From NCBI GenBank assembly GCA_964486505.1, contig CAZAMC010000001.1:106133-170132 (forward strand): DNA of 64,000 bases, in the 5' to 3' direction. The notes below the pieces were generated by a model that saw only the letters and a program-made list of their open reading frames with translations, searched no databases and was not told the origin of the DNA. Positions 22,438 through 52,899 of the stretch are shown one piece after another (position 1 is the first letter of the stretch; each line of letters begins with the position of its first letter). This stretch comes from an uncultured Gammaproteobacteria bacterium. GTDB taxonomy: Bacteria > Patescibacteriota > Patescibacteriia > PEXW01. A program made the translations under genes and the position numbers.

Positions 22438-22439
22438 GC

Positions 22440-23234: not shown

Positions 23235-23235
23235 A

Positions 23236-24300
23236 CTACCGCTTGGCTCCTGTGCCTTCAGCTTCCGTTGAGAGAACGAGAGAGTTGCGTAGAGTATCTA
23301 AATCTTCTAAAACTATGCCCGCGCCCCGCACAACGGCAGTGAGGGGGTCATCGGCCACGTGGACAGCGATTTTCGTTTGGCGCTGTACGAGTTCCGGCAA
23401 CCCACGCAGGAGTGCCCCGCCGCCTGTTAAGAGTATCCCCCGTTGGTGAATGTCTGCGACCAGCTCCGGCGGGGTACTTTCAATAACGCTGCCAATATTC
23501 TCTACGAGCATGCTCAAATTTCGGCTCAGGGCTTCACGGACGTGCTGTCCCATCATCGTTACTTCTTTGGGCAGACCTGTAATGAGGTCACGCCCCCGAA
23601 CTTTTGTCTCCAGAAGGTCATTTTCTTCGGTGGCGCTACCAATGGCAATCTTCGTTTCTTCGGCTGTTCGCTCGCCGATGAGCAAGTTGAAATGTTCCCG
23701 GGCATACTGGGTAATGCTTGAATCAAAAGCATTCCCGGCGGTGCGTAGACTTCGCCACGTTACCACCCCGCCAAGCGAAATAACGGCAATGTCGGTTGTC
23801 CCGCCGCCAATATCTACAACCAGGTTCCCTGCGGCATCTTGGATTGGTAGTCGAGCACCAATTGCTGCCGCCATTGGCTGTTCAATTAAGTACACTTCTC
23901 GGGCGCCCGCATGCAGCGTAGCGTCTTCTACAGCTTTCCGTTCTACTTCAGTTACGCCAAGGGGGATGCCAATGACAACCCGCGGGCGTGGGATAAAGGT
24001 AAAACCTTCCCGGTGTACTTTGTCCACGAAGTAGCGAAGCATTTTTTCTGTTACTTCAAAGTCAGAAATGACGCCGTCGACTAAGGGCTTAGCGGCAATA
24101 ATGTGGCTTGGCGTTTTCCCGACCATCTTCCGCGCTTCGGCGCCCACGGCTAGAATCTGCTCGGTTCGGGTGTTTACCGCAACGACTGACGGCTCATTGA
24201 TCATGATGCCCTTCCCTTTCACGTACACAAGGGTACTCGAAGTCCCCAGGTCTATGCCGAGGTCTCGGGAAAAACGGCCGAGAATACGATCGAATATCAT
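23236..24300 (-). CDS. mreB: Rod shape-determining protein MreB
   Basis: DLGIDLGTSSTLVYV, VDIGGGTTD and GGALLRG actin-fold motifs. Confidence 0.9.
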   Translation of the reverse strand: MIFDRILGRFSRDLGIDLGTSSTLVYVKGKGIMINEPSVVAVNTRTEQILAVGAEARKMVGKTPSHIIAAKPLVDGVISDFEVTEKMLRYFVDKVHREGFTFIPRPRVVIGIPLGVTEVERKAVEDATLHAGAREVYLIEQPMAAAIGARLPIQDAAGNLVVDIGGGTTDIAVISLGGVVTWRSLRTAGNAFDSSITQYAREHFNLLIGERTAEETKIAIGSATEENDLLETKVRGRDLITGLPKEVTMMGQHVREALSRNLSMLVENIGSVIESTPPELVADIHQRGILLTGGGALLRGLPELVQRQTKIAVHVADDPLTAVVRGAGIVLEDLDTLRNSLVLSTEAEGTGAKR

Positions 24301-25523
24301 AGGTCGTGAATAATCTTTCGGGCGGCAGCCTCTGGTACAACTTGAACGTTACCGGTTCCTCGTTCAGTTATCTCAACGTTATCACCATGCCGAGCGCTGA
24401 AGACCACCCGCACGGGCATGCCCAGAAGGTCAGCGTCCTTCAGTTTAAAGCCCGGGCTAACTTCACGGTCGTCAAATAGCACAGTATCAGCAAATTCGTC
24501 TGCAAATTTTTCCGCACGCGCTTGGAGCTGGGCATCGGCCTTGCCAGCCACCAGGAGGTGCGCTGAAAACGGCGCGACGCTCGCCGGCCACACCAAGCCC
24601 CGCTCATCTGCGTGAACTTCTGCAATGGCACCGACGAGTCGGGAAACCCCAATGCCGTAGCTCGCTACGAATAACGGTTGACGCTGCCCTTTCGCATCCG
24701 TAAAGGTGCAGCGCATGTCTGTACCGTAGTACGAGCCAAAGTTAAAGGTATTTCCAACTTCGATACTCTTCTCCACGGCTGCGGGCTTTGAGCAGGCTGG
24801 GCAGATGGTTTCGGCGCCAAGTTCAACGTTCTGGGCAAAGCCACAGTGCGAGCAATGCAGTATTCGGTCTTCGCCCGCCTCGCTGAGCACCTGAAATTCA
24901 TGGCTATGGCGTTTGGTAAATGTCCCGCCCGATGCTTCGGTTTTTAAGGCTTGGAGTTTGCACCGTTCAAAGATTTTTTGGTAGGCCACATGCACAGCAC
25001 TGTAGTATGTGTCGAGATCTGCAGCAGAGCCGTGAAAGCTGTAAAGATCTTTCATGAGAAATTCTCGTCCGCGCATGACGCCTGACTTTGCCCGTGGCTC
25101 ATTTCGGAACTTCCATTGAATTTGGAAGAGCCGAAGCGGGATGTCACGGTAGGTGGGTTGACTTCGCCGCACGAGGTCGACAATGACTTCCTCGTGGGTT
25201 GTGGCGAGGCCAACGGCATGGTGGTGACCATCATCAAACTGGTACATGATTTCTCGGAGAGTATTCCAACGACCGGTTTCATCCCAAAGGCCTTTGGGTT
25301 GGAGGGCCGGCATAAGAACTTCACTGGCGCCTATACGCGTGTGCTCTTCTCGGATAATGCGAGAAATGTTTTCTAAGACTCGGTGGCCAAGGGGTAGCCA
25401 GCTGTAAACACCGGCATGCAGTTTGTCTACAAATCCCGCTTGCTGCAAAAGCTTGCCATTCCGGGAGACCTCGTCGGCGGGAGCAGCGTTCTGCGTGGGA
25501 ATGAAGAGTGATCGGAAGCGCAT
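24297..25523 (-). CDS. proS: Prolyl-tRNA synthetase, short bacterial-like form without the large editing insertion
   Basis: Class II motifs FRNEPRAKSGVMRGREFLMKD and GIGVSRLVGA. 408 aa. CxHC...CPAC cluster where the INS domain would sit. Confidence 0.8.
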   Translation of the reverse strand: MRFRSLFIPTQNAAPADEVSRNGKLLQQAGFVDKLHAGVYSWLPLGHRVLENISRIIREEHTRIGASEVLMPALQPKGLWDETGRWNTLREIMYQFDDGHHHAVGLATTHEEVIVDLVRRSQPTYRDIPLRLFQIQWKFRNEPRAKSGVMRGREFLMKDLYSFHGSAADLDTYYSAVHVAYQKIFERCKLQALKTEASGGTFTKRHSHEFQVLSEAGEDRILHCSHCGFAQNVELGAETICPACSKPAAVEKSIEVGNTFNFGSYYGTDMRCTFTDAKGQRQPLFVASYGIGVSRLVGAIAEVHADERGLVWPASVAPFSAHLLVAGKADAQLQARAEKFADEFADTVLFDDREVSPGFKLKDADLLGMPVRVVFSARHGDNVEITERGTGNVQVVPEAAARKIIHDL

Positions 25524-25528
25524 AGATT

Positions 25529-26629
25529 TTAGAATAGTCGGTCCCAGAGCGCCCGGACGGCGTCTAGGCGGAGGACATCCCGCAAAGTAATAAGCGCAAC
25601 GAGAGCGAGCAAAGCAGCAAACCCGGCGCTGTGAATTTTTGCTTCAGTAACGCGACGCAACGGCTTGCCTCGCAACCGCTCTATCGCTAGGAAGAGCACG
25701 CGCCCCCCATCGAGGGCGGGTATAGGCAAAATGTTAATGAGGGCCAAATTCAGGGAAAGGAGGGCGGTAAATTGCAAGATGTACGAGAAGCCGAGTTGGG
25801 CTACTTGGCCAGTCAGCACCGCAATGCCTACTGGTCCGGCCACGTCTGCGCTCACCTGCCCATGGGCAACCAGATTAACAATGAGTTGGGCAAAGGCTTG
25901 AATGATTGCCCAAAATGATTCGTACGTTGCGCGGGCACCTTCCACAATCGCTCGGCCTATGCCAAAAGACACTGTGCCAATTTGTGCCAAGCTGACGCCC
26001 AGGCCGGTGTTCTCGGTACCGGGAATAAGTGCGAGCGGTATTGTTTTCTCCTGTACCAGCCCATTACGCTCATACTGAACCCGCACATCTTGTGCGCTGA
26101 CGTTGCGGGTCCGCTGCTGGACTTGGGTGGGTAGTGTAGTTGCTACTCCGTCAATGCTGACTACCACGTCGCCCGGTTGAAGGCCGGCTTTCGCCGCAGC
26201 AGACCCGTCTGCCACGGCAATAACTTGCAGTTCAACATTTCGCACCTTCGCCCCCGCGGGTGCCCCTTCAGTAACATCGGTTGGTAACCCAGAGGCAAAA
26301 CCTATAGCAAAAACGCCAAAAGCCAAAATGATATTCATCACAACGCCGGCAACCAGGATAATGAAGCGGCGCCAAGCATCAGCCCTAACAAAGCTACCCG
26401 CATCCTGCTCTTCTCCGTCTTCACCGTGCAGACGTACAAACCCCCCAACGGGAATCCAGTTAATGCTGTAGGTTGTTTCCTTTCGGCGAATGCCCCATAG
26501 GCGGGGTGGGAAACCAAACCCAAATTCCTTCACTTTTACCCCCAAAAGCCGCGCCGCACAGAAGTGCCCAAACTCATGGACGAAGACCAGCAGGCTCAGG
26601 ACGATGATGAAGATGAGAATTGGTGGCAT
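25529..26629 (-). CDS. rseP: RIP site-2 metalloprotease RseP
   Basis: HEFGHF motif in the first TM. PDZ-like middle region. LDGG motif near the C-terminus. Four TM segments. Confidence 0.85.
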   Translation of the reverse strand: MPPILIFIIVLSLLVFVHEFGHFCAARLLGVKVKEFGFGFPPRLWGIRRKETTYSINWIPVGGFVRLHGEDGEEQDAGSFVRADAWRRFIILVAGVVMNIILAFGVFAIGFASGLPTDVTEGAPAGAKVRNVELQVIAVADGSAAAKAGLQPGDVVVSIDGVATTLPTQVQQRTRNVSAQDVRVQYERNGLVQEKTIPLALIPGTENTGLGVSLAQIGTVSFGIGRAIVEGARATYESFWAIIQAFAQLIVNLVAHGQVSADVAGPVGIAVLTGQVAQLGFSYILQFTALLSLNLALINILPIPALDGGRVLFLAIERLRGKPLRRVTEAKIHSAGFAALLALVALITLRDVLRLDAVRALWDRLF

Positions 26630-26631
26630 GC

Positions 26632-27183
26632 TTAGATATTCGTCAATTCCGCCTCTTTCTGGTCACCAAGTTTTTGAATTCGATCAGTGCAGTCATCAAC
26701 AAATGCTTGCAAGGTTTTAAGTTCCTGGGCCGCAATGTCTTCGGAAAGATCGCCATCGCGTTCACGCTGCTTTACCTGCTTCTGTACATCTTCGCGTACC
26801 CCCCGGACTCCCACCTTAGCCATCTCTAATTTTTCTCCCACAGTTTTCAACATCTCTCGACGACGCTCCTCGGTGAGCGGTGGGAAGTGTAAGCGGATGA
26901 GGGTTCCTTCAACAGTTGGCATAATGCCTAACGGCGATGCCTGGATGGCCTTCTCCACCGCCTTTACCAGGTTTGGGTCCCACGGTTGGATGAGCAGTTG
27001 CGTTGCCTCAGGGGCGGTAATGCTCGCGGCCTGGATGAGGGGTGTGGGGGCACCGTAGGCGTCAATGCGGATTGACTCGACCATGGCAGGATTTGCTCGC
27101 CCCGTGCGAATACTCTGCAGTTCTTGCTGCAGGTGGGCGAGGACTTTTTCGAAATTGGCTTTTTGCTCGGGGGTCAGGGGCAT
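26632..27183 (-). CDS. frr: Ribosome recycling factor
   Basis: 183 aa. Conserved ESIRIDAYG...P, ITAPEA and RREMLK blocks. Confidence 0.9.
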   Translation of the reverse strand: MPLTPEQKANFEKVLAHLQQELQSIRTGRANPAMVESIRIDAYGAPTPLIQAASITAPEATQLLIQPWDPNLVKAVEKAIQASPLGIMPTVEGTLIRLHFPPLTEERRREMLKTVGEKLEMAKVGVRGVREDVQKQVKQRERDGDLSEDIAAQELKTLQAFVDDCTDRIQKLGDQKEAELTNI

Positions 27184-27192
27184 ACAGAAAGT

Positions 27193-28248
27193 CTACTTGC
27201 GAGGAATGTACGTGCCAATGTACAGCACTGCTGGCCGGCGGGGGTGTGCTAACAGCGTACGTAACTGACGGGCTGAAGGCACATTTTGCAACGTCTGCCA
27301 GGTTTCACCGCCATCTTGCGACCGGTAAAATGTAGAATTTGCGGTAAAGAAGAGTTCTTTCTCGTCAAAGGGGTTTATGGCTACGCTGAGAATCGGTACG
27401 GTGTTCGGGGGGATGACCGTGGGTACCACTTGCCACGAAGCGCCACCATCGCGAGACCGATACAAGCCCGCGTTTGTCGCGGCGTACATCGTTCCAGGAT
27501 TCCGTTCGGTGTAGGTGAAATGGTTGAGCGGTACGGCGCCAGCTTTGCCAAGGGCTTGGCCGATTGAGTCTGACCAGGTAACCCCACGGTCAGTGGAACG
27601 GTACAGTGTTCCACCGACAAGCAAGAACATGATGCTCGGATCATTCTGCAGGATCGTTAAGCGTTCAAGGCCCATACCCGGGAACTGGTAGAGAATGCGC
27701 CACGTAACCCCTTGGTCATCACTTTCCAGGAGTACACCCCCATTTGTCGCGGCGTAGATGTGGCGGCTGTTTGCCGGGTCGAAGCGAACCGCGGTAATCG
27801 TGTTCCCCGGTTGATTCGTGTACACAACATTCCAGGTTTCCCCAGCATCGGCGCTGTACTGCACCGTGTTCGCAACCCCAGCAAACATTAGTTTTGGATC
27901 CTTAGCGTTAATATCAAATCCCTGAATAAAGCCGTTGCTCAATGGGGTGGGCGTCCAGGTCTCTCCATTATTTACGGTTTTCCACAAACCTTGCTCCAAG
28001 GTGCTCATGTACACGGTTGCGCCGTCTTCTGGATGAAGGTAGAAGAAACCAACGTTGGCATTGTTTAAGGTGACTTTTCCGCTTTCTTCATCGCGTACAA
28101 AGACCCGCTGTTCCCACGTTACGCCACGGTCTACTGAAAAAAACATCCCGCCGTCACCAGAAGCCGCTCCCCCACCGCCGGTGTTAATGGAGATGGCACA
28201 ACTGGAGAGAAAAACCACGACTAGCGCAAGACCAAGAATTCTTTTCAT
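27193..28248 (-). CDS. BNR/Asp-box repeat beta-propeller lipoprotein
   Basis: Lipobox-like signal (VVFLSSCAI). At least seven S-x-D-x-G-x-T-W repeats (SVDRGVTW, TVNNGETW, SADAGETW, DDQGVTW, STDRGVTW, SRDGGASW, SQDGGETW). Confidence 0.7.
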   Translation of the reverse strand: MKRILGLALVVVFLSSCAISINTGGGGAASGDGGMFFSVDRGVTWEQRVFVRDEESGKVTLNNANVGFFYLHPEDGATVYMSTLEQGLWKTVNNGETWTPTPLSNGFIQGFDINAKDPKLMFAGVANTVQYSADAGETWNVVYTNQPGNTITAVRFDPANSRHIYAATNGGVLLESDDQGVTWRILYQFPGMGLERLTILQNDPSIMFLLVGGTLYRSTDRGVTWSDSIGQALGKAGAVPLNHFTYTERNPGTMYAATNAGLYRSRDGGASWQVVPTVIPPNTVPILSVAINPFDEKELFFTANSTFYRSQDGGETWQTLQNVPSARQLRTLLAHPRRPAVLYIGTYIPRK

Positions 28249-29132
28249 ATGCGCGTAAGGAGAGCATCGAGAATAAATCGGGGTTGGGCGTTTGACTGAA
28301 GTACACGACTGGTTTCGCAGAGGGCCTGCACTGTTGGTAAGGCCCGGGGCCACGTACGGGCCGCTGCCGCGGTAAGCGCCTGCGCTTTGTCGCGCTGCAC
28401 ATTGAGGGGCATGCTGCTTTCAAAGACGCTGCTCATTTCCCGAAGCCGCTGGACCAAGGGTACCCGCGGTAACTTTTCTGCAAGGGTGTCTAGGAGTTGC
28501 ATAGCTTGAAGTTGGACGGGTTGTTCGAGCACTGCTGCAGCTGTCGCGGGCATTCCGGGATAGGCGCGTAGCACGCGTTCCACTGCCGACTTAGGATACC
28601 CGGCCGCTACCAAAGCTTTTATTGCTTGCTCTGTAGGGACGCGCTGGACGTAGAAAAGCATTGTCCGCGACCGAAGAGTTGGTAGCAAACTTTGTCGTTC
28701 TGGAACGGTAAGAACGAAGCGCACGTCACCCAGCGGCTCTTCCAGGGTTTTCAAGAGCGCATTTGCAGCGGCTCCGCGTAGGAGATTCGCTTGGTGCAAA
28801 ACCACGATTCGTCGGGTGCTGCGGAGCTGCAAGGCTCGTCGAAGACTGCGAATATCTTCGACCGCATAGCCAGTGGGTCCTGGCTCCAGGGTAATGACCT
28901 GTTCGTGTAAGCCCCGGGCAATACTCTGGCAACCGGAGCACCGTCCGCAGGGTTCTTCAGCGCTATCTTCACAAACCGAGCACTCGCTCACCCACTGGGC
29001 AATCTGCTGGATAGCAAGACGGTCTGGACCCGCAAGGGTTATGGCGTGTCCAAATGACGAAGCGCGGAAGATATCCCGAAGGGCACGAATGAGGGTCTCA
29101 TGCCCCACGCGGGCGAGGGTGTACGTATGCAT
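28245..29132 (-). CDS. holB: DNA polymerase III delta' subunit (HolB-like)
   Basis: AAA+ like with Walker A replaced (GHAITLAGPDR). Zinc module CGRCSGCQ. Box VII-like LLKTLEEP...VRFVLT. Start at MHTYTL chosen. Confidence 0.7.
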   Translation of the reverse strand: MHTYTLARVGHETLIRALRDIFRASSFGHAITLAGPDRLAIQQIAQWVSECSVCEDSAEEPCGRCSGCQSIARGLHEQVITLEPGPTGYAVEDIRSLRRALQLRSTRRIVVLHQANLLRGAAANALLKTLEEPLGDVRFVLTVPERQSLLPTLRSRTMLFYVQRVPTEQAIKALVAAGYPKSAVERVLRAYPGMPATAAAVLEQPVQLQAMQLLDTLAEKLPRVPLVQRLREMSSVFESSMPLNVQRDKAQALTAAAARTWPRALPTVQALCETSRVLQSNAQPRFILDALLTRI

Positions 29133-29185
29133 GCAAGACTGGAATGAAAGTACCAAAAAACTGCCTTTTTGGCAAGTCTCTCGGA

Positions 29186-30394
29186 CTACTGGCCTGAATG
29201 TAAAAGTGCCGCTAGCTGCTTGGCGCTTGCTGACCAAGAAAACCCTTGAACTCGGGCAAACCCACGGGTGCGGAGCAGCAGCTGTTCATCAGGATCATCA
29301 AGCACGCTCTGTATTGCCTGTCGCATAGCCGCTGGGTCATGAGGGTCCATGAGAATGCCAGCGTCCCCAACCACTTCTGGAAGCGCGGTGACGTGGCTAC
29401 AGACAACGGGCGTACCTACGGCCATAGCTTCGAGTACCGGAATACCAAAACCCTCGAAGAACGAAGGCATAACAAAAACTTCTGCACCGGCCATGAGCGC
29501 CGGTATGTCTTGGCTCGCCACCCACCCAGGACGCTGGACAGATTTTTGTAACTGATGTTCCTGAATGTAGGCATCCACTTCACGCGCACCCACTCCTGCT
29601 TTCCCAACGAGGAGAAGCTGTACGTTGGCGAATTTTGGCTGACGAATGAGCTCGGCAAAAGCTTGGACCAAACCCAGAGTGTTCTTCTTCTTTTCAATGC
29701 GGCCAATGGACATGAGGTAGGGCGGCCGAACGCCTGCCCGCGCAAACGCCGCCTGCAGCACTTCTCGGTTATCCCGAATATGTGGTTGAAAAGCTGTACT
29801 ATCAAAGGCATTTGGAATGACATGCACCCGCTCGGGTTCTATGCCGTACGTGGTGCAAATGTCACGTTTGGAATACTCGGAGACGGTAAGAATGGTCTGG
29901 CAGTGACGGATTGCCAGACGAGCCGAAAACCTGTGGTAATCCAGCTCCGTCCCGCCGTAGCGACCAAGCGTGAGGAAACGGATGAGGACGTTGAGCCACT
30001 GTTTGCTGTGCACGGCTTTCCCCAGAAGCTCGTGGCCGTAGAGGTCACTTGCGTGTTCAAAGCCAATATCGTGCAACGTGGTAAGTGTCCGACGAGGAGC
30101 GAGAAACGGAATCGTGTGCGCCGGAACGAAGAGGACGTCAACGCGATGGATGAGGAGTTCCCAAGACAAGCGGAACTGTGTCCAGAGCAAACCGGGCGGC
30201 CAACGCAAAACCCGAACGTGGACGTTCGAGGGCAAAGGGCCCCATTCGTCCCGCAGAGGCTCACGAACGTAGAGTCGAACGTCGTCGGAGGGCTGCAGAT
30301 ATGCAAAAAGCGCTTTGGTCAGGTGAAAAGCGTACCACTCGGTGCCGGTACGTTGTGCGAGGTTCGCCCGTGATGCATCAATCCCGATGCGCAT
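29186..30394 (-). CDS. Glycosyltransferase family 4 (GT1-fold, group 1)
   Basis: MRIGIDAS start. C-terminal EGFGIPVLEAMAVGTPVV is the GT4 motif. Confidence 0.8.
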   Translation of the reverse strand: MRIGIDASRANLAQRTGTEWYAFHLTKALFAYLQPSDDVRLYVREPLRDEWGPLPSNVHVRVLRWPPGLLWTQFRLSWELLIHRVDVLFVPAHTIPFLAPRRTLTTLHDIGFEHASDLYGHELLGKAVHSKQWLNVLIRFLTLGRYGGTELDYHRFSARLAIRHCQTILTVSEYSKRDICTTYGIEPERVHVIPNAFDSTAFQPHIRDNREVLQAAFARAGVRPPYLMSIGRIEKKKNTLGLVQAFAELIRQPKFANVQLLLVGKAGVGAREVDAYIQEHQLQKSVQRPGWVASQDIPALMAGAEVFVMPSFFEGFGIPVLEAMAVGTPVVCSHVTALPEVVGDAGILMDPHDPAAMRQAIQSVLDDPDEQLLLRTRGFARVQGFSWSASAKQLAALLHSGQ

Positions 30395-30399
30395 AGGCG

Positions 30400-31422
30400 T
30401 TAACGGGTGGCGAGGACGCTGCGCTTGTAGGATTCCAGGTTATCCAGGGCTACGCCTGTGCCTTTGGCTACACAGAGCAAAGCGTCGTCGGCCACGTACG
30501 CAGGTACCCCGGTTGCTTGGGTGAGGAGCTTGTCCATGTTCCGCAGCAGGCTTGAGCCACCCGAGAGCACCATGCCCTTATCAATGACGTCGGCCGAAAG
30601 CTCTGGGGGGGTGTTCTGTAGAACGGACTTCACCGCCTGGATGATACCTACCAGTTCGTTCTGGATAGCGGCGGTTATGTCGTCCGACGTAACGCGTAAC
30701 GTGGTGGGCAAGCCACTCACCATATCCCGGCCTCGCACGTCCATAGTGAGTTTGTCCTCCAAAGGAAGGGCGGAGCCAATTTGAATTTTCAGTTCTTCGG
30801 CTGAACGTTCACCAATGGCCACCCCGTGTTTCTTCCGCATGTACTCTTGAATGGCAGCATCAAATTTATTGCCGCCAATACGAACAGAGGTGTTGGCCAC
30901 AATGCCACCGAGGGAGATCACTGCAACTTCCGAAGTGCCACCACCCATGTCAATGATCATGTGCCCGGAAGCAGACCCAATGGGGATGTTTGCCCCAATC
31001 GCCGCGGCGATTGGTTCTTTAATAATGTACGCAGCTTTGGCACCCGCTTGAATGGTGGCGTCAATGACGGCACGGCGCTCTGTTGAGGTAATGCCGGCAG
31101 GTACAGCAATCATCACTTCGGGGCGGAAGAAACGTACGCCCCCCAACGCCTTATTAATGAAGTACCGGAGCATGGCCTCGGTGGTTTTGTAATCGGCAAT
31201 GACGCCTTCCTTTAACGGCCGAGAAGCAATTATTGTGTCGGGGGTTCGACCGAGCATTTCCTTGGCTTCTACGCCCACCGCCAAAATCCGCCTATCCCCT
31301 ACTGCCACAGCAACTACGGAAGGTTCATTCAGAACAATGCCGCGGCCGGGCATGTGAACGAGGGTGTTCGTCGTGCCAAGGTCTATGCCAAGTTTTTTTC
31401 CGAAGAGGGCCATACTATTCAA
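30400..31422 (-). CDS. MreB/Mbl-like actin homologue, second paralogue
   Basis: KLGIDLGTTNTLV, IIDMGGGTSE and GGSSLLRN motifs. About 45% identity by eye to the 23236-24300 MreB. Confidence 0.85.
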   Translation of the reverse strand: MNSMALFGKKLGIDLGTTNTLVHMPGRGIVLNEPSVVAVAVGDRRILAVGVEAKEMLGRTPDTIIASRPLKEGVIADYKTTEAMLRYFINKALGGVRFFRPEVMIAVPAGITSTERRAVIDATIQAGAKAAYIIKEPIAAAIGANIPIGSASGHMIIDMGGGTSEVAVISLGGIVANTSVRIGGNKFDAAIQEYMRKKHGVAIGERSAEELKIQIGSALPLEDKLTMDVRGRDMVSGLPTTLRVTSDDITAAIQNELVGIIQAVKSVLQNTPPELSADVIDKGMVLSGGSSLLRNMDKLLTQATGVPAYVADDALLCVAKGTGVALDNLESYKRSVLATR

Positions 31423-33370
31423 AAGTCACTTCGTACTCCCGATCGACTTCGAGCGTCGCTTCATCCTGGAGGCGTTCACCCTGCACGTGGGCGCCCTCTG
31501 GAAGAATAGGAGTATCGCCAATTTCCCGGTCCACGTCAACCGTCAGCTGAAGGGCATGAGCAATTGTTCCCGGCTGCTTTTGGATGAGCAGTTTGTAGCG
31601 CCCTTGGTCCAAAAGGGCCACCGGGCTGCCATTCAAACGGTATGTAAGCGTGAGCTCTTTCGTGGCACCAACTTCGGTGCAGGTAAAGGCCGCGAAAACA
31701 GTGTGCCCCAGCTCTTCAAACGATTCTACCGTGCCATCTTTCTTCACGTTGCACTCGGTCATGGCACCACTTGAAGAAATGAGAGTGCTACCCCGGGGCA
31801 CGTAGACACGCGTATACGTCCGGTAACGCGTAGTTTTCCACGTCAGCTTCCCAGTGTGCTGGTATTTGATAACGAGGTTTGCAATGAGGTCGCCGCCATC
31901 GCGCGTGACCTTGTAGGTAAGCGTACGCGACACAGCTGGGTCACTCTTCAAGCTTGCAAGGTTGGCATCAATAACCATGAGGCTGTCCCCTTGCGGCACC
32001 TCTACAGCACCGGCCCAGCCTAACGACTTCACAATTGCCTGCCGGTCACCATTCGCAAGCCAGATGAGTAAGTGCTTCTGCTGGACGCTCTCTTGGAATA
32101 TGGTCCAGGCCTTACCGTACTTCTCCTTGGGTAGTTTCAGCATGCGCTCAATGAGCTGCTGTCCCAGGACGCCAATAATGTTCTTTCGCTGGGTAGTATC
32201 AACATTTACTTTCCCATCGTACGCATACCCCGTAATGTACTGCAGCTCTTCCACAAGGTTGTCCGACCGGAATTCGGTTTTACCAATAGTGATGGGCCCC
32301 GTGAGCGTAAGGAGGCGCGAGAAGAAGGTTGGGTCAACGGCAATGACCCCGTCGAGATTACGTTCTGGTCCCCCTTCCCGCCGGTAGAAGTTTAGGGCTT
32401 CTTGGGCTGCTGTTGGAAAGTCGGGAGACCAGTTTGAGTCCCGGAAGAGCCAACGGTTTACCCGCATGTACTTGGTGAGGGGGGTGGGAGGCTTAATGTT
32501 CAAGCCTTTTGCCCGATCATCAAGATTATAAACGTTGTCGGTGGTGAACGAAGCAATTTCTCCATCACGGGCCTTGAGAATCCCGTACGTACCAATGAAG
32601 CCACCGGTAGGCCGGAGCTCAGTATTATTTTGCAAAAGGAAGAGGTAGTTCTGCTGGTCAGGGTACCCCAAGATTGGCGGGATAATCCGGCTCGCGGGAA
32701 TTGCCTGCTCAATGCCATCACGTAGCCCAGGGAGTTTCTCTTGGAATGGCTGAATGGCATTCGCTACCGGTCCGAGCAAGCCACTCTTCGGAATAGCGTC
32801 AATATGGGTCAAGGCTAAATCAAGGGATGCTTTGGCAGCCTGCAAATCGGGCTGCGCTTTGTAGATAGCCTCCAAGATGCTGCGCTTCTGTTCGGGTTTC
32901 AGGGTACTAAGGCTAAACGACTTCCCCGTTTTAAAAGGTTTCACCACGGTTTCCGCCCATGTGCTCAGGCGTTCAACGCCTGCGGTCATGGCAATGCCCG
33001 CCGATAGCAGTTCATTAATCGCTCGAACATTTGCGCCGGCCACGGGGAACTTCCGTAGAACATTCAAGCGCTGCATCTTCTCTTGGGCTGTAACTAAATG
33101 CGCGCGGCCAGTGACGAGGGCTTTCTGGCCCTCCGTAAACTCTTGGCTGACGATCATGGTTTGCGCTTCTTCCAAATCCGTTTTCGCCGCGAGAGCTTCT
33201 TTGTACACGGTCCGAGCCGAGGGGCCAAACCACGCTGCGCCTATAGCCAAGACCAACACCAAGCCGGCAAGGACGGGCCATGCGTAGCGCCAAATTTTTC
33301 GCAGCGTGCTTCGGACTCTTGCCCACTGCGGGTTCCGGAGACGATCCAGCAAGTTATGCAAGGCATTCAT
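31415..33370 (-). CDS. DUF4012-like large extracytoplasmic protein with N-terminal TM anchor
   Basis: N-terminal TM (WPVLAGLVLVLAIGAAWF) then ~600 aa soluble. Family assignment from memory of DUF4012 architecture (TM + long helical/beta region in polysaccharide loci). Not verified. Confidence 0.5.
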   Translation of the reverse strand: MNALHNLLDRLRNPQWARVRSTLRKIWRYAWPVLAGLVLVLAIGAAWFGPSARTVYKEALAAKTDLEEAQTMIVSQEFTEGQKALVTGRAHLVTAQEKMQRLNVLRKFPVAGANVRAINELLSAGIAMTAGVERLSTWAETVVKPFKTGKSFSLSTLKPEQKRSILEAIYKAQPDLQAAKASLDLALTHIDAIPKSGLLGPVANAIQPFQEKLPGLRDGIEQAIPASRIIPPILGYPDQQNYLFLLQNNTELRPTGGFIGTYGILKARDGEIASFTTDNVYNLDDRAKGLNIKPPTPLTKYMRVNRWLFRDSNWSPDFPTAAQEALNFYRREGGPERNLDGVIAVDPTFFSRLLTLTGPITIGKTEFRSDNLVEELQYITGYAYDGKVNVDTTQRKNIIGVLGQQLIERMLKLPKEKYGKAWTIFQESVQQKHLLIWLANGDRQAIVKSLGWAGAVEVPQGDSLMVIDANLASLKSDPAVSRTLTYKVTRDGGDLIANLVIKYQHTGKLTWKTTRYRTYTRVYVPRGSTLISSSGAMTECNVKKDGTVESFEELGHTVFAAFTCTEVGATKELTLTYRLNGSPVALLDQGRYKLLIQKQPGTIAHALQLTVDVDREIGDTPILPEGAHVQGERLQDEATLEVDREYEVTFE

Positions 33371-34197
33371 AGGGCTGAGCGGTTAGGCCGGACGGGCAGC
33401 GGGACGCCCCAGTACTTGGCCAGGTAACGGAACCATGATCGAATGTGAATTTGCGTAGGGAAGGCAAAAATTCCGCGCAAACCTGGGTGTGCGGCAGAGG
33501 CCCGCTTGTGGTAGTGCACACACTCTACACCTGCAACGTACCACACTTCCCAACCAACTGCCCAAAAGCGCCGGCACCAATCTACATCTTCAAAGTACAG
33601 AAAGAACCGTTCATCCATATCCCCCACCTGTTGCACAGCTTCGCGGCGAGCGATGAGGAATGCACCAAGCAGCCAGTCAACCGGCCGGTCTTCCTGGTGA
33701 TCAAAGTCCGCCATAACGAACCGTTGCAAGTGCGCACGGATGCCAGGTAATTTTCCTAAGGGGGTCCGTCGGAAAAGCGGAGTGAAGGTGTTGTGGAAAC
33801 GGTAACACGAGTACTGAACGGTGCCATCGGGATTCAAAAGCTTAGGGCCGGCAACACCCGCACGCGGATGCTGATCCATGAAAGCGACCAGGCGATCAAA
33901 AGGGCGATCCATAATAGCAATGTCCGGATTCAGCAAAACTACGTACCGACCATTGGCGCGTTTCAGGCCGAGGTTCATCCCGCTGGCAAAACCCTTGTTC
34001 TCCGCGGCGGCTACGACCGTAACCTCGGGAAAATCTTGCTCCAACATCTCAACGCTGCCGTCGTTGGAATTGTTATCGACAACGATGACTTCCACCGTCA
34101 CCGTATCGCCCGACGTGGCAATGCCCCGAAGGCACTGCCGGAGTAAACCGCGGGATTTGTAGTTCAGAATAATGGCCGAAACGTCGGGTTCTGGCAT
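33367..34197 (-). CDS. Glycosyltransferase family 2
   Basis: VSAIILNYKS...VIVVDNNSNDGS and DxD-like FEDVD. Start at MPEPDV avoids overlap with the neighbour. Confidence 0.8.
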   Translation of the reverse strand: MPEPDVSAIILNYKSRGLLRQCLRGIATSGDTVTVEVIVVDNNSNDGSVEMLEQDFPEVTVVAAAENKGFASGMNLGLKRANGRYVVLLNPDIAIMDRPFDRLVAFMDQHPRAGVAGPKLLNPDGTVQYSCYRFHNTFTPLFRRTPLGKLPGIRAHLQRFVMADFDHQEDRPVDWLLGAFLIARREAVQQVGDMDERFFLYFEDVDWCRRFWAVGWEVWYVAGVECVHYHKRASAAHPGLRGIFAFPTQIHIRSWFRYLAKYWGVPLPVRPNRSAL

Positions 34198-34204
34198 GGG
34201 AAGG

Positions 34205-35125
34205 TTAGAACGTGGCCCGAAGCATACGAGCCACTTTTTTTCTGGGCTGAGCACCAGCGAACGTTCTTGCAGCGTGCCACATTTTCAGGGCATCAGCAAG
34301 GGCATGCAATGTCACGCGGGGATCTGTGCACAGCAAAAATATGAAACGCAGAAGCTCGGCAGGGATCACTGCCCACGCGTGCGGCAGCACCGTTTGCCAA
34401 GATTCCACCAGCGCATAGAGAAGGATGTGATTTCGATAGCTTAAGTACCGGCGGTCGGCGCTTCGCTGAGCGCGGGCGGCGCCCTTGCCCACCTGTCGAG
34501 CATGGGTGGCGACGGCCATGGGCACGCAGAACGCTTCCCAGCCATTCCACCGCAGCCGCCACGCTAGCTCTACGTCTTCTTTATACGCAAAGAGGAGGTT
34601 ACAAAAAAATTCACCGTTCACGGCGGTCTGCTGCAACGCTGCTCTCCGGTAGAGCGCTACCGCCCCCGACACGCCAAAAACTTCTTGCGGTGTCGGTGGA
34701 ATAGTTACCCGCTCTTGGATAAGTCGCCATGGGGGTATGTGCAAGCCGGTTGTATCAACGCCACCCTGCGCATTCTTCACCGTCCCCACAAACGCGGCTG
34801 CCGTGGGGTGGGCATCAGCAAAACGTACCAGGTGCTCCAGGTAATCAGCCTCTAAGCGAACGTCCGGATTAATGACGAGTACGTAGTCAGCGGTGCCTTG
34901 CGCAATGCCCATATTGTGCCCGCGAGAAAAGCCCGTGTTCTTCCCAAGCGCAACAACGTTCACGCCAGGTACTGCTTTTGCCACGTCGACGGAATTATCG
35001 GTTGAACCATTATCCACTACCGTCAGTGATTGGGGCACCAGCGTTTGCTGACGCAGACTGCGCAAAACCAACGCAAGTTCTTCCGCGCTATTCCAGCTTA
35101 CAAGCGAAACATCAACGGTGCCCAT
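34205..35125 (-). CDS. Glycosyltransferase family 2
   Basis: VSLVSWNSAEEL...LTVVDNGSTDNS, GFSRGHNMG. Start at MGTVDV. Confidence 0.8.
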   Translation of the reverse strand: MGTVDVSLVSWNSAEELALVLRSLRQQTLVPQSLTVVDNGSTDNSVDVAKAVPGVNVVALGKNTGFSRGHNMGIAQGTADYVLVINPDVRLEADYLEHLVRFADAHPTAAAFVGTVKNAQGGVDTTGLHIPPWRLIQERVTIPPTPQEVFGVSGAVALYRRAALQQTAVNGEFFCNLLFAYKEDVELAWRLRWNGWEAFCVPMAVATHARQVGKGAARAQRSADRRYLSYRNHILLYALVESWQTVLPHAWAVIPAELLRFIFLLCTDPRVTLHALADALKMWHAARTFAGAQPRKKVARMLRATF

Positions 35126-36572
35126 AGCGTGGATCGGCCAAAGCAAAGCCGGTAGTAATGAGGATGAGCATGCCAAGGCCTAGTGGGTGGTTGAGGTACG
35201 GGGTCGTAAGGTGGAGGACCATGAGCGCAACGCCGCTGGCCAAAAGCCCGGCAACCAATGGCCGCTCGGTGGTCTGCAGGCGCAGGATATGTACCCCCTG
35301 CATGAGCACCCAAATGAAAGCGGCCAAGAGCACAATAGTGATCGGCACGCCGGCGTGAACGGCAAAACCGTGGTAGCCCAACTCAAACGCCCGGGCGGTG
35401 TACAAGGTTCCGTTTGCATCATGGGTAACGTTTACCCGGGGGTCCAGCGTACGGTAGGTTATGCTCGTGCCAAAGCCGTTGCCGAGCAAAGCATGTTCAA
35501 GAATCTTCTTGTGCATTGCTGGCAGCAACTCGCGTCGGCTAGAGGCGGCAGACTCTGTAGCAATGTCTGTTCGATTCCGAACCAGCGAGCCGCTTCCGCC
35601 CGCGCCGCCCCATAAACCCGGGAAATTGAGCGTCCAGAGAAAGCCAACGTACGCCAAGAGCAGTGCTACGCCGCTGGCCAGCACCACCTGCGGAAAGTAC
35701 GACCGGAGTGACCGACGAGCAAGCAATCCTCCGAGACTCACAACTGCAGCAGCAATCCCACCCAGCCAGAAGCTCCGTGACAAACTGACGATGACCACGT
35801 AAGCCCCCAAACCAGCAATAGTCGTCCAGAACCATTGCCGTTTACGGTCAGCCACCGCTAGACCAAGGCCCGTGAAGAACGCAAAGAGGCCCCAGACGTG
35901 ACTTTGGAAGAAGACGCGGTACAGACGACCAATGATCCACGTAATCTCGCCTACCCCGGTATCGCGCACCCACTTGTAGAGCTGCACGAGCTCGGTTGAG
36001 GGGTAGTGAGCAAAAAGCCCTTGGACGAAAGCAGTTTTTATGGCTAAGACACCAATTGCCGCAGCACTCACCCACAAGACCCGCCGAAATTCTTCGCGAG
36101 AACGGAGCAGACCAAAAAGAGGTACAGCCCCGATGTACAAGTACGCGTTCGCATCCAAGAAGACGTTCCCAAGCCCATGGCCCCGTAGTACCCCTACGAA
36201 CGCTGCCCAAACCGCCAACCCCAAAAACGCCAACCAGACCCAGCGGAAACGCCACTGTGCGCCCCAAAGACTTTTTCTTCGGAGCAGATGCATGAGCGTA
36301 GCGGCAAAGACCGCTAGGAAAATTCCCAGCCGGAATGAAATGTCCTGGCCGCCTTCCGGCAGACTGAAGAGGTAGCCTTTCCCACCCACAATGAGTTCAG
36401 CGACGACGATACTCACACCAGCGACCGGGGAAAAACTTGTTGCGATAAAAGTGAGGAAAACGAGAATCACCCAAAAGATTACTCCCGCAGTTGGCCAAAG
36501 CCAGCCCAGGTACGAAAGCCCCTCAATGATGAGTAGGCCAACAACCGTGCTTGCAAAAAGTTTCCAGCGCAT
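35112..36572 (-). CDS. O-antigen ligase/polymerase-like polytopic membrane protein (Wzy/WaaL family)
   Basis: About 10-12 TM segments with a large periplasmic loop. Embedded among GT2 genes. Start at MRWKLF chosen. Confidence 0.65.
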   Translation of the reverse strand: MRWKLFASTVVGLLIIEGLSYLGWLWPTAGVIFWVILVFLTFIATSFSPVAGVSIVVAELIVGGKGYLFSLPEGGQDISFRLGIFLAVFAATLMHLLRRKSLWGAQWRFRWVWLAFLGLAVWAAFVGVLRGHGLGNVFLDANAYLYIGAVPLFGLLRSREEFRRVLWVSAAAIGVLAIKTAFVQGLFAHYPSTELVQLYKWVRDTGVGEITWIIGRLYRVFFQSHVWGLFAFFTGLGLAVADRKRQWFWTTIAGLGAYVVIVSLSRSFWLGGIAAAVVSLGGLLARRSLRSYFPQVVLASGVALLLAYVGFLWTLNFPGLWGGAGGSGSLVRNRTDIATESAASSRRELLPAMHKKILEHALLGNGFGTSITYRTLDPRVNVTHDANGTLYTARAFELGYHGFAVHAGVPITIVLLAAFIWVLMQGVHILRLQTTERPLVAGLLASGVALMVLHLTTPYLNHPLGLGMLILITTGFALADPRYGHR

Positions 36573-36573
36573 A

Positions 36574-37440
36574 CTACTTACGCCGAAATGTGCTGGCGAG
36601 CCAAACAAGTGCCAGTCCTTTCCACCCCGCAATGCGTACCAGCACTGTTGCCAGTCGAGAAAAATGTTTGCGACTGTAGCGGAGTACACTGGCGGCCCAC
36701 ACCCGCTGCTTCGCCAGGGAAGGCAACTGGTTAAAGCTCCCTCCGCCGAGATGAGTGATGGCAGCGCTGGGCACAAACCACGTTTCCCAGCCAGCATCGG
36801 CGGCGCGCTTGCAGTAATCTACTTCCTCGAACCATATGTGGAAACCGTCATCCATTAACCCAATCTGGCGGATCACATCGGTCCGGATGAGAAAAGCCGC
36901 TCCCATAACTTGGCCAACCGGTTGCTCAGCAGTGTAGTCCAGTTCAACGGCCATGTACCGACGCAACGGGGGGAAGCTCGGCCACCAATGAGAAAACTTC
37001 AAGGCAATGGCAACGAGAACCGTTGGCGTAGGGAGACGTCGAACCGATGGTTGGAGAGAGCCATCTGCGTTAAGTAACTTCGGCCCTACAATGCCCGCTC
37101 GGGGATGATCGGTGAGCGCCTGGAGCATCCGGGGGAAGGCGCCCGGCGGAACAAGCGTATCGGGATTAAGCAGCAATACCGGCAGACCCTCGCTCGCCTG
37201 CATCGCTTGGTTATTTGCACCAGCAAACCCACGATTATCAGAATTGGCGATGAGCTGGACCTGCGGAAATCGCTCTCGCACCATGGCAGCGGTCCCGTCC
37301 ATCGAAGCATTATCCACGACAAAAACCTTCCTCGGTTGTTCGGTGGCTGGCAAACGAAAAATGCTCTCCAGGCATTCCTGAAGAAGCTTGCGAACGTTCC
37401 AACTCACTATGACAACCGAAAGATCCAGCGTGCCTGGCAT
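36574..37440 (-). CDS. Glycosyltransferase family 2
   Basis: LSVVIVSWNVRKLL...VFVVDNASMDGT, NRGFAGANN. Confidence 0.8.
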   Translation of the reverse strand: MPGTLDLSVVIVSWNVRKLLQECLESIFRLPATEQPRKVFVVDNASMDGTAAMVRERFPQVQLIANSDNRGFAGANNQAMQASEGLPVLLLNPDTLVPPGAFPRMLQALTDHPRAGIVGPKLLNADGSLQPSVRRLPTPTVLVAIALKFSHWWPSFPPLRRYMAVELDYTAEQPVGQVMGAAFLIRTDVIRQIGLMDDGFHIWFEEVDYCKRAADAGWETWFVPSAAITHLGGGSFNQLPSLAKQRVWAASVLRYSRKHFSRLATVLVRIAGWKGLALVWLASTFRRK

Positions 37441-39914: not shown

Positions 39915-41159
39915 TTACGAGCAGTAGTCGCTCATAGTCCCGCTCACGCCGTCAGCCGCCGGAAGGGCGCGAACCGTTGCTTCATCGGTAGCGGAAAGCC
40001 AGTCAAACCAGCATACGGCAAAGTACGCGTTGCTCACCATGTCACTGTGTGCCGTTTGATAAGCGACATCCTGCGAAGCAGCGTTTGCCGTTCGCAAGTC
40101 GTAGACACCAAGGTCGAAACCGACGTTATCTGGATGCCCAACTGCAGTAGCGATAACGGTCCCGGATTTAATGAATGCCGGCTTGACTATGTACGATTGC
40201 GAACTCTCATTCGGCGCGGGCAGCTGGCTAGCCAGGGCGGCCATAGTGGACGAAAGTGTATGCAGGTGGTCCAGCCGGTAACGGATGCCGCAGGGGTGGA
40301 TGAAGTCGAAGTAGTACTGAATATCCGCGCCTTCGTAATGCCGAGAGCCATCTACGACGTACCCATCAAACGGTGCGGTAATCGTAACTGCGTTGTAGGC
40401 CTGGCCATCTAGGCGGAAACCACCGTGAGGCTTGTACTGGCCGCCGCGTACTTGGCCCGGGTACAAAACAGAACTGGCTTGGGCAATGTTTACAGGCAAT
40501 CGAATAGTGAATGGTGTTGGGCACGTTGGCACCGTCCCTCCAGATGCTACCCACTTCGTACCGTTGAAGTTCCACGACACGCTACTGAACGGCGTAAGGC
40601 TCTTCACCAGAGCTGCAAGAGATTGCGCAAAAGGACTCGTGCTCTGTTTGGTCCACTTTTCGGAAACACTGTAGACGTTTACTTTGTCGTTTGAGAGTAA
40701 GACAACCCGCCACGTTGTTTTCACGCCCCGGACAGTTTTGGTAAGGGTGAGGAGGGATGCACTCCATCCAGAACGCGTGTACGTACTGATTCTTACGGTC
40801 GCACCAAGTTTTGTAGCGAGAACCTTTGCATACGCGTTCACAAAACCCGACCAACTTTTTTTCAAGCTGGACTTCAAGCTCGTCGTCAGGACGGCCGAGT
40901 CGTTATTGAGTAACTGCACAGTAGCGCTGTAGCTCACACCTTTCGCGGCAAGAGTCTTCAACGTCGCCGCGGGTGGTACCACCCCCACAGACTTTGCGAA
41001 CTTCTTCGTGCTCCAAGTGCTGGGGTACGTGAAGCTGTACTGATCTGCGGTGTACGTGTAGGTCTTGGTCGTGGCGGCGTACACGGGCACTGCCTGCAGA
41101 ATAGTGCCTGCGGTGAAGAGAATGCTCAGCACAATGGCAAGTTTCTTTACCATACGCAT
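39915..41159 (-). CDS. Secreted hypothetical protein, possibly with a degenerate LytM/M23-like C-terminal region
   Basis: Signal peptide LAIVLSILFTAGTILQAVPVYAA. C-terminal HGGFRLD ... DHLH spacing reminiscent of M23 HxxxD/HxH. Weak. Confidence 0.4.
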   Translation of the reverse strand: MRMVKKLAIVLSILFTAGTILQAVPVYAATTKTYTYTADQYSFTYPSTWSTKKFAKSVGVVPPAATLKTLAAKGVSYSATVQLLNNDSAVLTTSLKSSLKKSWSGFVNAYAKVLATKLGATVRISTYTRSGWSASLLTLTKTVRGVKTTWRVVLLSNDKVNVYSVSEKWTKQSTSPFAQSLAALVKSLTPFSSVSWNFNGTKWVASGGTVPTCPTPFTIRLPVNIAQASSVLYPGQVRGGQYKPHGGFRLDGQAYNAVTITAPFDGYVVDGSRHYEGADIQYYFDFIHPCGIRYRLDHLHTLSSTMAALASQLPAPNESSQSYIVKPAFIKSGTVIATAVGHPDNVGFDLGVYDLRTANAASQDVAYQTAHSDMVSNAYFAVCWFDWLSATDEATVRALPAADGVSGTMSDYCS

Positions 41160-42238: not shown

Positions 42239-42736
42239 CTACCGAACTTCTCGCACGCTCAGTACAACGTCCTTCCCCCCAATGGTTCGGTGAATTGTAT
42301 CCCCCACTTGCCTGCCCATGAGCAACGCGCCCAAGGGTGATTTGTGTGAAATAATCCCCCGCCCTGGGTCGGTTTCGGTTGGGCCAAGAATGCGGAACGT
42401 TTGGCGCCCGCCGTCTTGCTCAATAGTCACGGTGCTTCCAAGTTGAACAATTCCCGATTCGCTACGAGACGGGATAATCTGCGCAAGCTTAAGGTGGTCT
42501 TCAATTTCCAGGATGCGTTGGTTAATACCTCGCAACCGCCCTTTAGACAGTTGGTAGGCCGCGTTTTCCGAAAAGTCCCCCATTTCTGCCAAGCGCTTCA
42601 CTTCAGCCGCCGCCTCGGGGCGCGCCCGCAGCAGTCGAGCGAGTTGTTGTTTGAGCTCGTCAAACTTTCCCTGCGTCATGTGCGGGTCTCGCTGTTGGTC
42701 TGTGTACTTCCCCGGTTTCCGGGCAGGGATGCGCAT
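42239..42736 (-). CDS. GreA/GreB-family transcript cleavage factor, second paralogue
   Basis: LAEMGDFSENAAYQLSKGRL acidic-tip coiled coil. C-terminal VQLGSTVTIE...GIISHKSPLGALLMGRQVGD. Start at MTQGKF (42679) or MRIPAR (42736). The ORF-track extension to 42961 overlaps the upstream gene. Confidence 0.75.
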   Translation of the reverse strand: MRIPARKPGKYTDQQRDPHMTQGKFDELKQQLARLLRARPEAAAEVKRLAEMGDFSENAAYQLSKGRLRGINQRILEIEDHLKLAQIIPSRSESGIVQLGSTVTIEQDGGRQTFRILGPTETDPGRGIISHKSPLGALLMGRQVGDTIHRTIGGKDVVLSVREVR

Positions 42737-43113
42737 TACCCTTGTATACCTGGTTGGCTGGGCTGTCGCTGCTTGTAGAGGATGTACCAGCCAGCAATTG
42801 CGCCAATGATGGGTGGGAAAGCCATGAGGAGGCCTTCTGCCGTATGGGGGCCCAGCAGGTATACCGTCAGGGCTAACCCGATAACCAAAAAGCCAAATGG
42901 CCGAACGTCTTTGAAAAATCGGCACACCCCAAAGGCGAGCAGAAGGTACAGCGCCCCCCATATGAACATAGTGAAGCTGGATGCCCCCGCCCCGCAGCTA
43001 ATTTCTGTGGACCGCTCGGCGGCTGAGCACAAACCGTAGGCTTGCACGACCCCAGCAACAAGGGCGGCAACCAAGTGAGCAGTGAACGCGTAGAATAGGA
43101 AGTGACGCTTCAT
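42736..43113 (-). CDS. Hypothetical small membrane protein
   Basis: Four hydrophobic segments. 125 aa. Confidence 0.4.
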   Translation of the reverse strand: MKRHFLFYAFTAHLVAALVAGVVQAYGLCSAAERSTEISCGAGASSFTMFIWGALYLLLAFGVCRFFKDVRPFGFLVIGLALTVYLLGPHTAEGLLMAFPPIIGAIAGWYILYKQRQPSQPGIQG

Positions 43114-45810: not shown

Positions 45811-45843
45811 AAAAACAAGAAGTGGGTTAGACTTCTTGTTTTA
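45811..45843 (-). terminator. Intrinsic terminator immediately after the fatty-acid-hydroxylase gene
   Basis: 10-bp stem AACAAGAAGT/ACTTCTTGTT with a 7-nt loop. Flanked by an A-tract and a T-tract (bidirectional-looking). Confidence 0.55.
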
Positions 45844-46671: not shown

Positions 46672-46810
46672 GGAGTTACCTCCGAGGTTTCAGGTTATAA
46701 AGGTGTCACATATTCATGCAACCCGCTGCTGTAATTACAGAGCGAGAAGTGTGTATTTTTCTGTTTCGTGAGTATAGGCGAAACCCACCCGAAAAACAAT
46801 TCTGGTAATT

Positions 46811-47395: not shown

Positions 47396-47451
47396 AATGG
47401 CCTCTTTATACTACTCTTCTGAAAATATCCAATGTAGACAACATTTACTCC

Positions 47452-48964: not shown

Positions 48965-48966
48965 AG

Positions 48967-50280: not shown

Positions 50281-50425
50281 AAATAGGTGGATATGCCCTC
50301 TTGTTCACACAGTATAATTCTTTGCTTTTCTCTCGTATACCCCCTAGAAATCCCCTTACAACGTTGACAGCGCATAATGAACTATGTAGTGTGCATGTAA
50401 ACTAAAAACAAACGATGGAGGTTGA

Positions 50426-50941: not shown

Positions 50942-51024
50942 TACTCGCCCGACAGCGAACCAAGATCAGCCAGAAATGGTTGATCTTTTCTATAGTCTGT
51001 AACACCTACAACTGTATCGCGTTC

Positions 51025-52897: not shown

Positions 52898-52899
52898 AA

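Follow-up and report, generated by a model that had tools for sequence, protein, structure and literature searches.

Several MreB paralogues (MreB, Mbl and MreBH) share the monoderm-type cell of Bacillus subtilis, one encoded in the mreBCD operon and another elsewhere, and these isoforms have teichoic-acid enzymes and LCP ligases among their partners. RodZ, a membrane partner, uses a conserved cytoplasmic helix-turn-helix domain to bind MreB. Here we describe a second MreB gene, mreB2, in a window of 64,000 nucleotides (the whole stretch of DNA that was analysed, positions 106,133 to 170,132 of contig CAZAMC010000001.1) from a bacterium of the candidate phyla radiation (CPR; Patescibacteria). 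Its lineage resembles B. subtilis in having several MreB paralogues in a monoderm-type cell, one in an mreBCD-type operon and one elsewhere. Moreover, as in the MreB-RodZ and MreB-MreC pairs, a single-pass membrane protein, here of the DUF4012 family (PF13196), is encoded immediately beside the MreB gene, a placement that brings to mind an adaptor between the filaments and machinery outside the cell membrane. The same family occurs in the exopolysaccharide locus of Bifidobacterium longum 105-A, where the DUF4012 gene (BL105A_0406) adjoins a priming glycosyltransferase, Wzz and further glycosyltransferases and has no link to MreB (PMC5412050); that locus is without MreB, and no priming transferase or Wzz turned up in the window locus. 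DUF4012 is enriched in CPR bacteria and Gram-positives (PMC6744442). A second clade of CPR MreBs has been reported before: according to the available portion of that preprint, which does not describe gene neighbourhoods, CPR MreBs fall into two clades, both found within single genomes, for which different roles were suggested (Takahashi et al. 2020, bioRxiv 10.1101/2020.05.13.095042).

A wall-glycopolymer module is built around mreB2 in Kerfeld-, Falkow-, Buchanan-, Uhr-, Magasanik-, Kuenen- and Komeilibacteria. It consists of genes for a family 2 glycosyltransferase (GT2c), a Wzy_C protein, two further family 2 glycosyltransferases (GT2b and GT2a) and a DUF4012 protein upstream of mreB2, and for a family 4 glycosyltransferase (GT4) downstream; the genes lie a few nucleotides apart. 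The reading that we favour, at a probability of about 0.5, is that MreB2, though under strong constraint, is an ordinary second MreB with a general part in envelope growth, co-transcribed in this lineage with the module. In the window, the module lies in a run of about 22 genes from ~41.2 kb to ~19.4 kb, all on the minus strand, with near-zero intergenic space in the map of open reading frames (ORFs). Pfam searches gave the following genes, listed in the order of transcription:

36574-37440, minus strand: GT2c glycosyltransferase, first gene after a 129-nucleotide gap (PF00535, 5e-22)
35112-36572, minus strand: Wzy_C-family polytopic membrane protein (O-antigen ligase/polymerase superfamily), ~9 transmembrane segments; the ORF extends to 36797
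34205-35176, minus strand: GT2b glycosyltransferase (PF00535, 5.8e-23)
33367-34254, minus strand: GT2a glycosyltransferase (PF00535/PF13641), WbbL/rhamnosyltransferase-like below the family cut-off
31415-33370, minus strand: DUF4012 membrane protein (PF13196, 3e-34), transmembrane segment at residues 26-44
30400-31413, minus strand: mreB2, type-2 CPR MreB paralogue (PF06723, 439 bits, 1e-131), 337 residues from the ATG at 31413; the ORF reaches a TTG at 31422
29186-30394, minus strand: GT4 glycosyltransferase, soluble or peripheral, no transmembrane segment (Glycos_transf_1, 3e-33)
28245-29237, minus strand: holB
27193-28353, minus strand: BNR-repeat membrane protein
26632-27183, minus strand: frr
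25529-26629, minus strand: rseP-like M50 protease
24297-25523, minus strand: class II aminoacyl-tRNA synthetase (aaRS)
23236-24300, minus strand: mreB1 (PF06723, 455 bits)
22440-23234, minus strand: mreC
21916-22437, minus strand: mreD-like, by position and 4 transmembrane segments, no Pfam match
19980-21929, minus strand: PBP2

The genes from holB to the aaRS form a backbone (24297-29237) between the two MreB genes, and the set mreB1-mreC-mreD-like-PBP2 is situated 6 kb downstream of mreB2. It is MreB1, and not MreB2, that is encoded with MreC, an MreD-like protein and PBP2 as in a Rod system, both in the window and in its relatives. A preliminary description of this DNA, made from the sequence, had placed a canonical elongasome set at 19980-24300; Pfam bears this out for MreB1, MreC and PBP2, while MreD is assigned by position and transmembrane segments. 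That description had also put mreB2 5 nucleotides from the GT4 gene, and the junction indeed reads TAA, cgcct, ATG. The overlap of mreB2 with the DUF4012 gene, also claimed there, exists if translation begins at the upstream TTG; with the ATG start the junction is TAG, 1 nucleotide, ATG, and the database copy of MreB2 begins at this same ATG (337 residues). The Wzy-like protein probably starts at M76 (~36572) rather than at 36797, because the longer ORF would overlap GT2c by 224 nucleotides. Promoter- and terminator-like sites within the array showed no excess, with counts at or below the shuffled expectation, which makes that scan uninformative. The co-directional array is headed by a secreted or membrane-anchored protein of 414 residues (39915-41159, minus strand) with no Pfam or NCBIfam match.

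The second MreB reported at 30400-31422 proved to be bona fide. MreB2 scores 439 bits against PF06723 (cut-off 27), covering profile positions 2-326 of 327, and exceeds the NCBIfam cut-offs of NF010539 (454 bits versus 293) and TIGR00904 (444 versus 366). Neither copy reaches the cut-off of 515 for the MreBH subfamily model NF010540 (MreB2, 368 bits; MreB1, 393), which for MreB2 is one difference from the B. subtilis isoforms. MreB2 scores 380 bits against Geobacillus MreB (7zpt/8azg), and its distance from the solved MreBs of Geobacillus, Thermotoga and Caulobacter is much the same in each case (~50-55%); MreB1, too, is about equidistant from the three. It aligns without gaps to the solved MreBs and carries the ASKHA nucleotide-binding motifs DLGTTNT, IIKEPIAAA, DMGGGTS and LSGGSSLL, with the catalytic Glu and both phosphate motifs intact. 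Residues F98/F99 align with L93/F94 of the hydrophobic membrane loop of T. maritima MreB, which Salje and co-workers are said to have described in 2011 as a membrane-binding element. Judged by its sequence, MreB2 is thus a complete, bona fide MreB with nucleotide-binding motifs and a predicted hydrophobic membrane loop. Substitutions kept in at least 95% of its clade are IIKEP for LIEEP (E129K), GGSSLL for GGGALL (GGG to GGS) and LLRN for LLRG (G289N); of these, the E129K and GGSSLL changes are close to the nucleotide. The best database matches of both MreB2 and DUF4012 are metagenome-assembled genomes labelled 'Patescibacteria group' and Candidatus Kerfeldbacteria.

MreB1 and MreB2 share 48% identity over 336 residues. 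In neighbour-joining trees built with 50%-identity representatives of the whole family and 50 bootstraps, the MreB2 orthologues formed a clade in 50/50 replicates and the MreB1 orthologues in 46/50, and the two were sisters in 0/50, which recovers the published two-clade split. Since these clades are separate and not sisters, the duplication is ancient, and a recent tandem duplication was rejected on the identity and on the trees, in agreement with the preliminary view that the second MreB is clearly distinct. MreB2 is the lineage's orthologue of an ancient second MreB that is widespread in CPR bacteria ('type 2'). Within the same genomes, picked as the best MreB2 matches, identity to the window copy was 74-96% (median 78%) for MreB2 orthologues and 52-94% (median ~65%) for MreB1 orthologues, and the median in the same loci was 41% for RRF, 43% for RseP, 36% for DUF4012 and 27% for HolB. 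These identities show MreB2 as the slowest-evolving gene of the conserved array and suggest that the evolution of type 2 is slower by roughly two-fold.

The gene neighbourhood in the close lineage was analysed in 80 loci with MreB2 of at least 74% identity, obtained from a scan of species-representative genomes, whose ORFs were searched with the window proteins. At least seven candidate phyla of the Parcubacteria group are represented in these loci (Kerfeld-, Komeili-, Falkow-, Buchanan-, Kuenen-, Uhr- and Magasanikbacteria), which we take to be united in GTDB class ABY1; in the NCBI taxonomy, at least Falkowbacteria is a candidate phylum in the Parcubacteria group. Among loci with enough flank, the following neighbours of MreB2 were counted:

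DUF4012 directly upstream: 48/68 loci
GT2a upstream: 49/63 loci
GT2b upstream: 45/59 loci
Wzy_C upstream: 18/46 loci
GT4 downstream: 49/66 loci
HolB downstream: 49/60 loci
MreB1 downstream: 31/46 loci

DUF4012, GT2a or GT4 adjoined MreB2 in all 54 loci (54/54) with enough flank. Under a stricter rule of at least 5 kb on both sides of MreB2, which left 51 loci, glycan genes were found upstream in 47/51, GT4 downstream in 40/51, HolB in 43/51 and at least one glycan gene in 51/51. The frequency with which holB, a gene of unrelated function, stays beside MreB2 is close to that of the glycan genes, and frr and rseP remain linked to a similar extent. HolB was lost in 8 loci of the stricter set, and glycan genes were kept in 8/8 of these; in the rearranged loci L053 and L061, glycosyltransferase genes are still beside MreB2. 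Across loci, the median gap was ~5 nucleotides from DUF4012 to MreB2 and ~4 nucleotides from MreB2 to GT4.

Beyond this tight cluster, the nearest relatives, among them Nealsonbacteria and Minisyncoccales, have 55-62% identity to MreB2 and 43-50% to MreB1. They group with MreB2 in the tree (clade 33/33, MreB1 excluded in 50/50 bootstraps), and the second MreB of their loci groups with MreB1. The gene order in loci of this type is murA (PF00275)-mreB2-holB-frr-rseP-(aaRS)-mreB1-gatC-gatA, and no DUF4012 or glycosyltransferase gene adjoined MreB2 in those examined; the preliminary description had made its view depend on MreB2 orthologues elsewhere keeping glycan genes beside them, and this holds in the close lineage and not in these orthologues. 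murA encodes the first committed step of peptidoglycan synthesis. In the Nealsonbacteria-type loci, MreB1 is followed by neither mreC nor PBP2, and neither MreB copy adjoins mreC; gatC-gatA stand after mreB1, in place of mreC-mreD-PBP2, in loci L081-L085 and L087-L113. In a metagenome scan, most CPR loci had the murA-mreB2-holB-type pattern, with murA directly upstream in 11, and six loci (L100, L103, L104, L108-L110) had the glycan-flanked form; the non-CPR loci showed the ordinary mreB-mreC-PBP2 order and no DUF4012. Because the order is conserved across these distant CPR lineages, the deeply conserved unit is mreB2-holB-frr-rseP-(aaRS)-mreB1, and the gene upstream of mreB2 is an envelope-precursor gene that varies by lineage (murA or DUF4012/glycosyltransferase genes). 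Two further observations concern these arrays: ftsZ lies ~3.5 kb upstream of mreB2 in L081, and the membrane-anchored BNR/Sortilin-repeat (beta-propeller) protein (27193-28353 in the window, loci L001-L080) is kept between holB and frr in the glycan-flanked lineages and was not found by Pfam in four Nealsonbacteria-type loci.

The DUF4012 protein of the window scores 119 bits against PF13196 (cut-off 28), and all 120 listed homologues carry this domain. Its AlphaFold2 model (predicted local distance difference test 88.8, predicted template modelling score 0.84) begins with a short tail and one transmembrane segment (26-44), followed by a long helical stalk to ~233, an alpha/beta core (234-470) and, at the C-terminal end, a beta-sandwich (~480-650). 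The conserved positions cluster in the extracytoplasmic core: conservation there reaches at least 90% at 30% of the positions, and many polar residues do not vary, which points to an enzyme or to a site of specific binding. Invariant polar residues of the protein include N248, E251, D284, R310, D462, D468, N470, K475 and D477. The only cytoplasmic part is a basic tail of ~28 residues that is unconserved (mean top-residue frequency 0.27), unlike the helix-turn-helix domain of RodZ, and a RodZ-like adaptor role was rejected on this ground. A search for DUF4012-MreB fusions among long top-scoring MreB representatives returned none, and found kinase, zinc-ribbon or tandem MreB fusions instead. Mirror-tree partial correlations, which are confounded by phylogeny and saturation, were 0.44 for MreB2-GT2a (the highest for MreB2), 0.20 for MreB2-DUF4012 and 0.71 for MreB1-DUF4012, and did not discriminate among the readings weighed below. 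No solved structural or sequence relative of DUF4012 was found beyond a generic beta-sandwich, and the literature search found no publication treating DUF4012 together with MreB. Extra DUF4012 paralogues occur away from MreB2 in L063 (18244-19319), where the gene adjoins a second GT4 downstream of mreC, in L034 (1-3276; 1091 residues long) and in L023 (1-666).

The three GT2s and the Wzy-like membrane protein named in the preliminary description stood up, the former by PF00535 and the latter at family level: the window protein scores 18 bits (3e-3) against Wzy_C, below the cut-off of 31.7, and 23/25 orthologues match, the best at 5.7e-14. The family match points to a Wzy_C-type polymerase or ligase, between which the sequences do not distinguish. 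GT4, GT2a, GT2b and GT2c have no transmembrane segments, and their family matches are all generic or sub-threshold. The NCBIfam matches of GT4 are all sub-threshold (MSMEG_0565, MshA, BshA and GlgA-like families) and its PDB matches are MshA-like; GT2a and GT2c are closest to a WbbL-type rhamnosyltransferase model, yet fall below its cut-off, with GT2a reaching 6.6e-17 against TIGR01556. As the PDB and NCBIfam matches were generic, a sugar assignment for GT4 and GT2a was abandoned. Rhamnose wall polysaccharides have been proposed for a member of the same phylum (PMC11809585), which is a lead rather than a test. In L002 (1175-3838) and L005 (2196-4829), the GT2c orthologue lies within an ORF of ~880 residues, three times the window gene, which carries an additional fused domain or begins at another start.

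Among the scanned window ORFs, of which those below ~150 residues outside the locus were covered in part, there was no priming polyprenyl-phosphate sugar-phosphate transferase (PF00953, PF02397); Wzz, LCP ligase, TagO and TagGH were not seen in the window. A Polysacc_synt/MurJ-like protein, a putative flippase of the Wzx type (522 residues, 55804-57372), is encoded 18 kb from the MreB2 locus; with a GT4-GT2 fusion (597 residues) it forms a second pair of glycan genes (54060-57372) that adjoins the rpsI-rpoA-rpsD-rpsK ribosomal operon. This pair could provide the flippase that the MreB2 locus lacks. A WecG/TagA/CpsF-family (GT26) glycosyltransferase (10122-10823, plus strand, PF03808, 3e-32) lies beside gltX, 19 kb from the MreB2 locus, and hints at an undecaprenyl-diphosphate-GlcNAc-linked, teichoic-acid-type wall-polymer pathway. 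At the start of the window, an ORF that runs off its edge (3-2180, plus strand), with an LPG_synthase_TM region and DUF2079, is a predicted polytopic membrane protein that may be another envelope glycosyl- or aminoacyl-transferase.

According to the reading that we favour, MreB2 would be an ordinary membrane-bound MreB filament that organises general envelope growth. The array genes would be co-transcribed and probably translationally coupled, and this co-expression would let the glycosyltransferases of the cytoplasmic face keep the synthesis of a lipid-linked wall glycopolymer in pace with the growing wall. A precedent exists in the association of B. subtilis MreB isoforms with teichoic-acid enzymes, which the locus may parallel in coupling MreB filaments to lipid-linked wall glycopolymer synthesis and in the TagA/WecG-family enzyme of the window; it differs in that the Bacillus isoform genes are outside the glycopolymer operon, whereas the CPR linkage is known from the genes alone. 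The conserved core of DUF4012 would work on the outer side of the membrane, as an enzyme or as an assembly factor of the polymer; the protein would not be an adaptor of the RodZ kind, and MreB2 would not be exclusive to the glycan pathway. Several points weigh against this reading: co-transcription of the mreB2 array is read from gene spacing alone; within the lineage, the glycan linkage of MreB2 is at least as tight as its housekeeping linkage, so that a more specific coupling is possible; the substitutions in the nucleotide motifs of the MreB2 clade could signal a specialised activity; the trees are neighbour-joining only; and the choice of loci as best MreB2 matches somewhat inflates MreB2 conservation in the rate comparison.

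The preliminary description had proposed a dedicated cytoskeletal track for surface-polymer synthesis rather than for peptidoglycan. MreB2 filaments would then recruit GT4, GT2a, GT2b and DUF4012/Wzy_C and guide a surface or wall polymer, leaving peptidoglycan to MreB1-MreCD-PBP2. The adjacent glycan gene in every one of the 51 close-lineage loci, with gaps of a few nucleotides, is in keeping with this, as are a glycan linkage that outlasts both rearrangement and the loss of holB, the specific substitutions of the MreB2 clade, the top MreB2 correlation with GT2a and the Bacillus analogy. Nevertheless, the Nealsonbacteria/Minisyncoccales-type orthologues follow murA and are without glycan genes; the synteny of MreB2 with holB (43/51), frr and rseP is as deep or deeper; the cytoplasmic tail of DUF4012 is unconserved although MreB2 is ~80% conserved; DUF4012 distances track MreB1 better than MreB2; and no DUF4012-MreB fusion was found. 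The functional part of the proposal is not supported. Because MreB2 of the sister lineage adjoins a peptidoglycan gene, a general role is preferred, and we consider the glycan-only cytoskeleton unlikely. Still less likely is its extension to a single machine of type-2 MreB, GT4/GT2 enzymes and DUF4012/Wzy_C, in which the filament patterns the wall glycopolymer independently of the peptidoglycan elongasome and DUF4012, of a fold without solved relatives, is a new extracytoplasmic enzyme. Unlikely too, but with a somewhat stronger claim than either, is that the synteny is purely historical: MreB2 would be a partly redundant, Mbl-like elongasome isoform, and functionally unrelated glycan genes would have been inserted into the frozen, gene-dense array of a reduced genome. 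The mreB2-holB-frr-rseP-aaRS-mreB1 backbone does join unrelated functions and is conserved across CPR lineages, the ~22 co-directional genes leave almost no intergenic space, holB is retained to the same extent as the glycan genes, and the mirror-tree gave no specific co-evolution signal. However, where the array is broken MreB2 stays with the glycan genes and not with holB (8/8), an envelope-precursor gene stands upstream of mreB2 in every case, and the near-zero gaps at both of its junctions persist in genomes whose RRF is only ~40% identical.

Elsewhere in the window, a low-GC island (46000-54000; GC 0.37-0.49 versus ~0.55 elsewhere) contains an EcoRI-type adenine methyltransferase (52900-54009, 443 bits), an adjacent nuclease with GmrSD_N and HNH domains (51806-52897) and five ORFs without a Pfam match (45841-50941), and is probably a horizontally acquired restriction/defence island. 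Two genes of the GreA/GreB family are present on the minus strand (19443-19910 and 42239-42961), the second encoding 240 residues with an N-terminal extension of ~90 residues.

The mreB2-holB-frr-rseP-mreB1 array, its upstream neighbour (murA or DUF4012/glycosyltransferase genes) and the rate difference of type 2 appear to be undescribed. CPR/Patescibacteria account for a large share of bacterial diversity; most are uncultivated, and next to nothing is known of how their cells work. The conserved anatomy reported here, two ancient MreB paralogues in one array of which the second copy is under the strongest constraint, leaves the accepted picture of MreB function unchanged. It flags DUF4012 as a conserved extracytoplasmic protein worth a structure solution, and it makes testable both the roles of the two CPR MreBs and the coupling of wall-glycopolymer synthesis to MreB in ultra-small cells.

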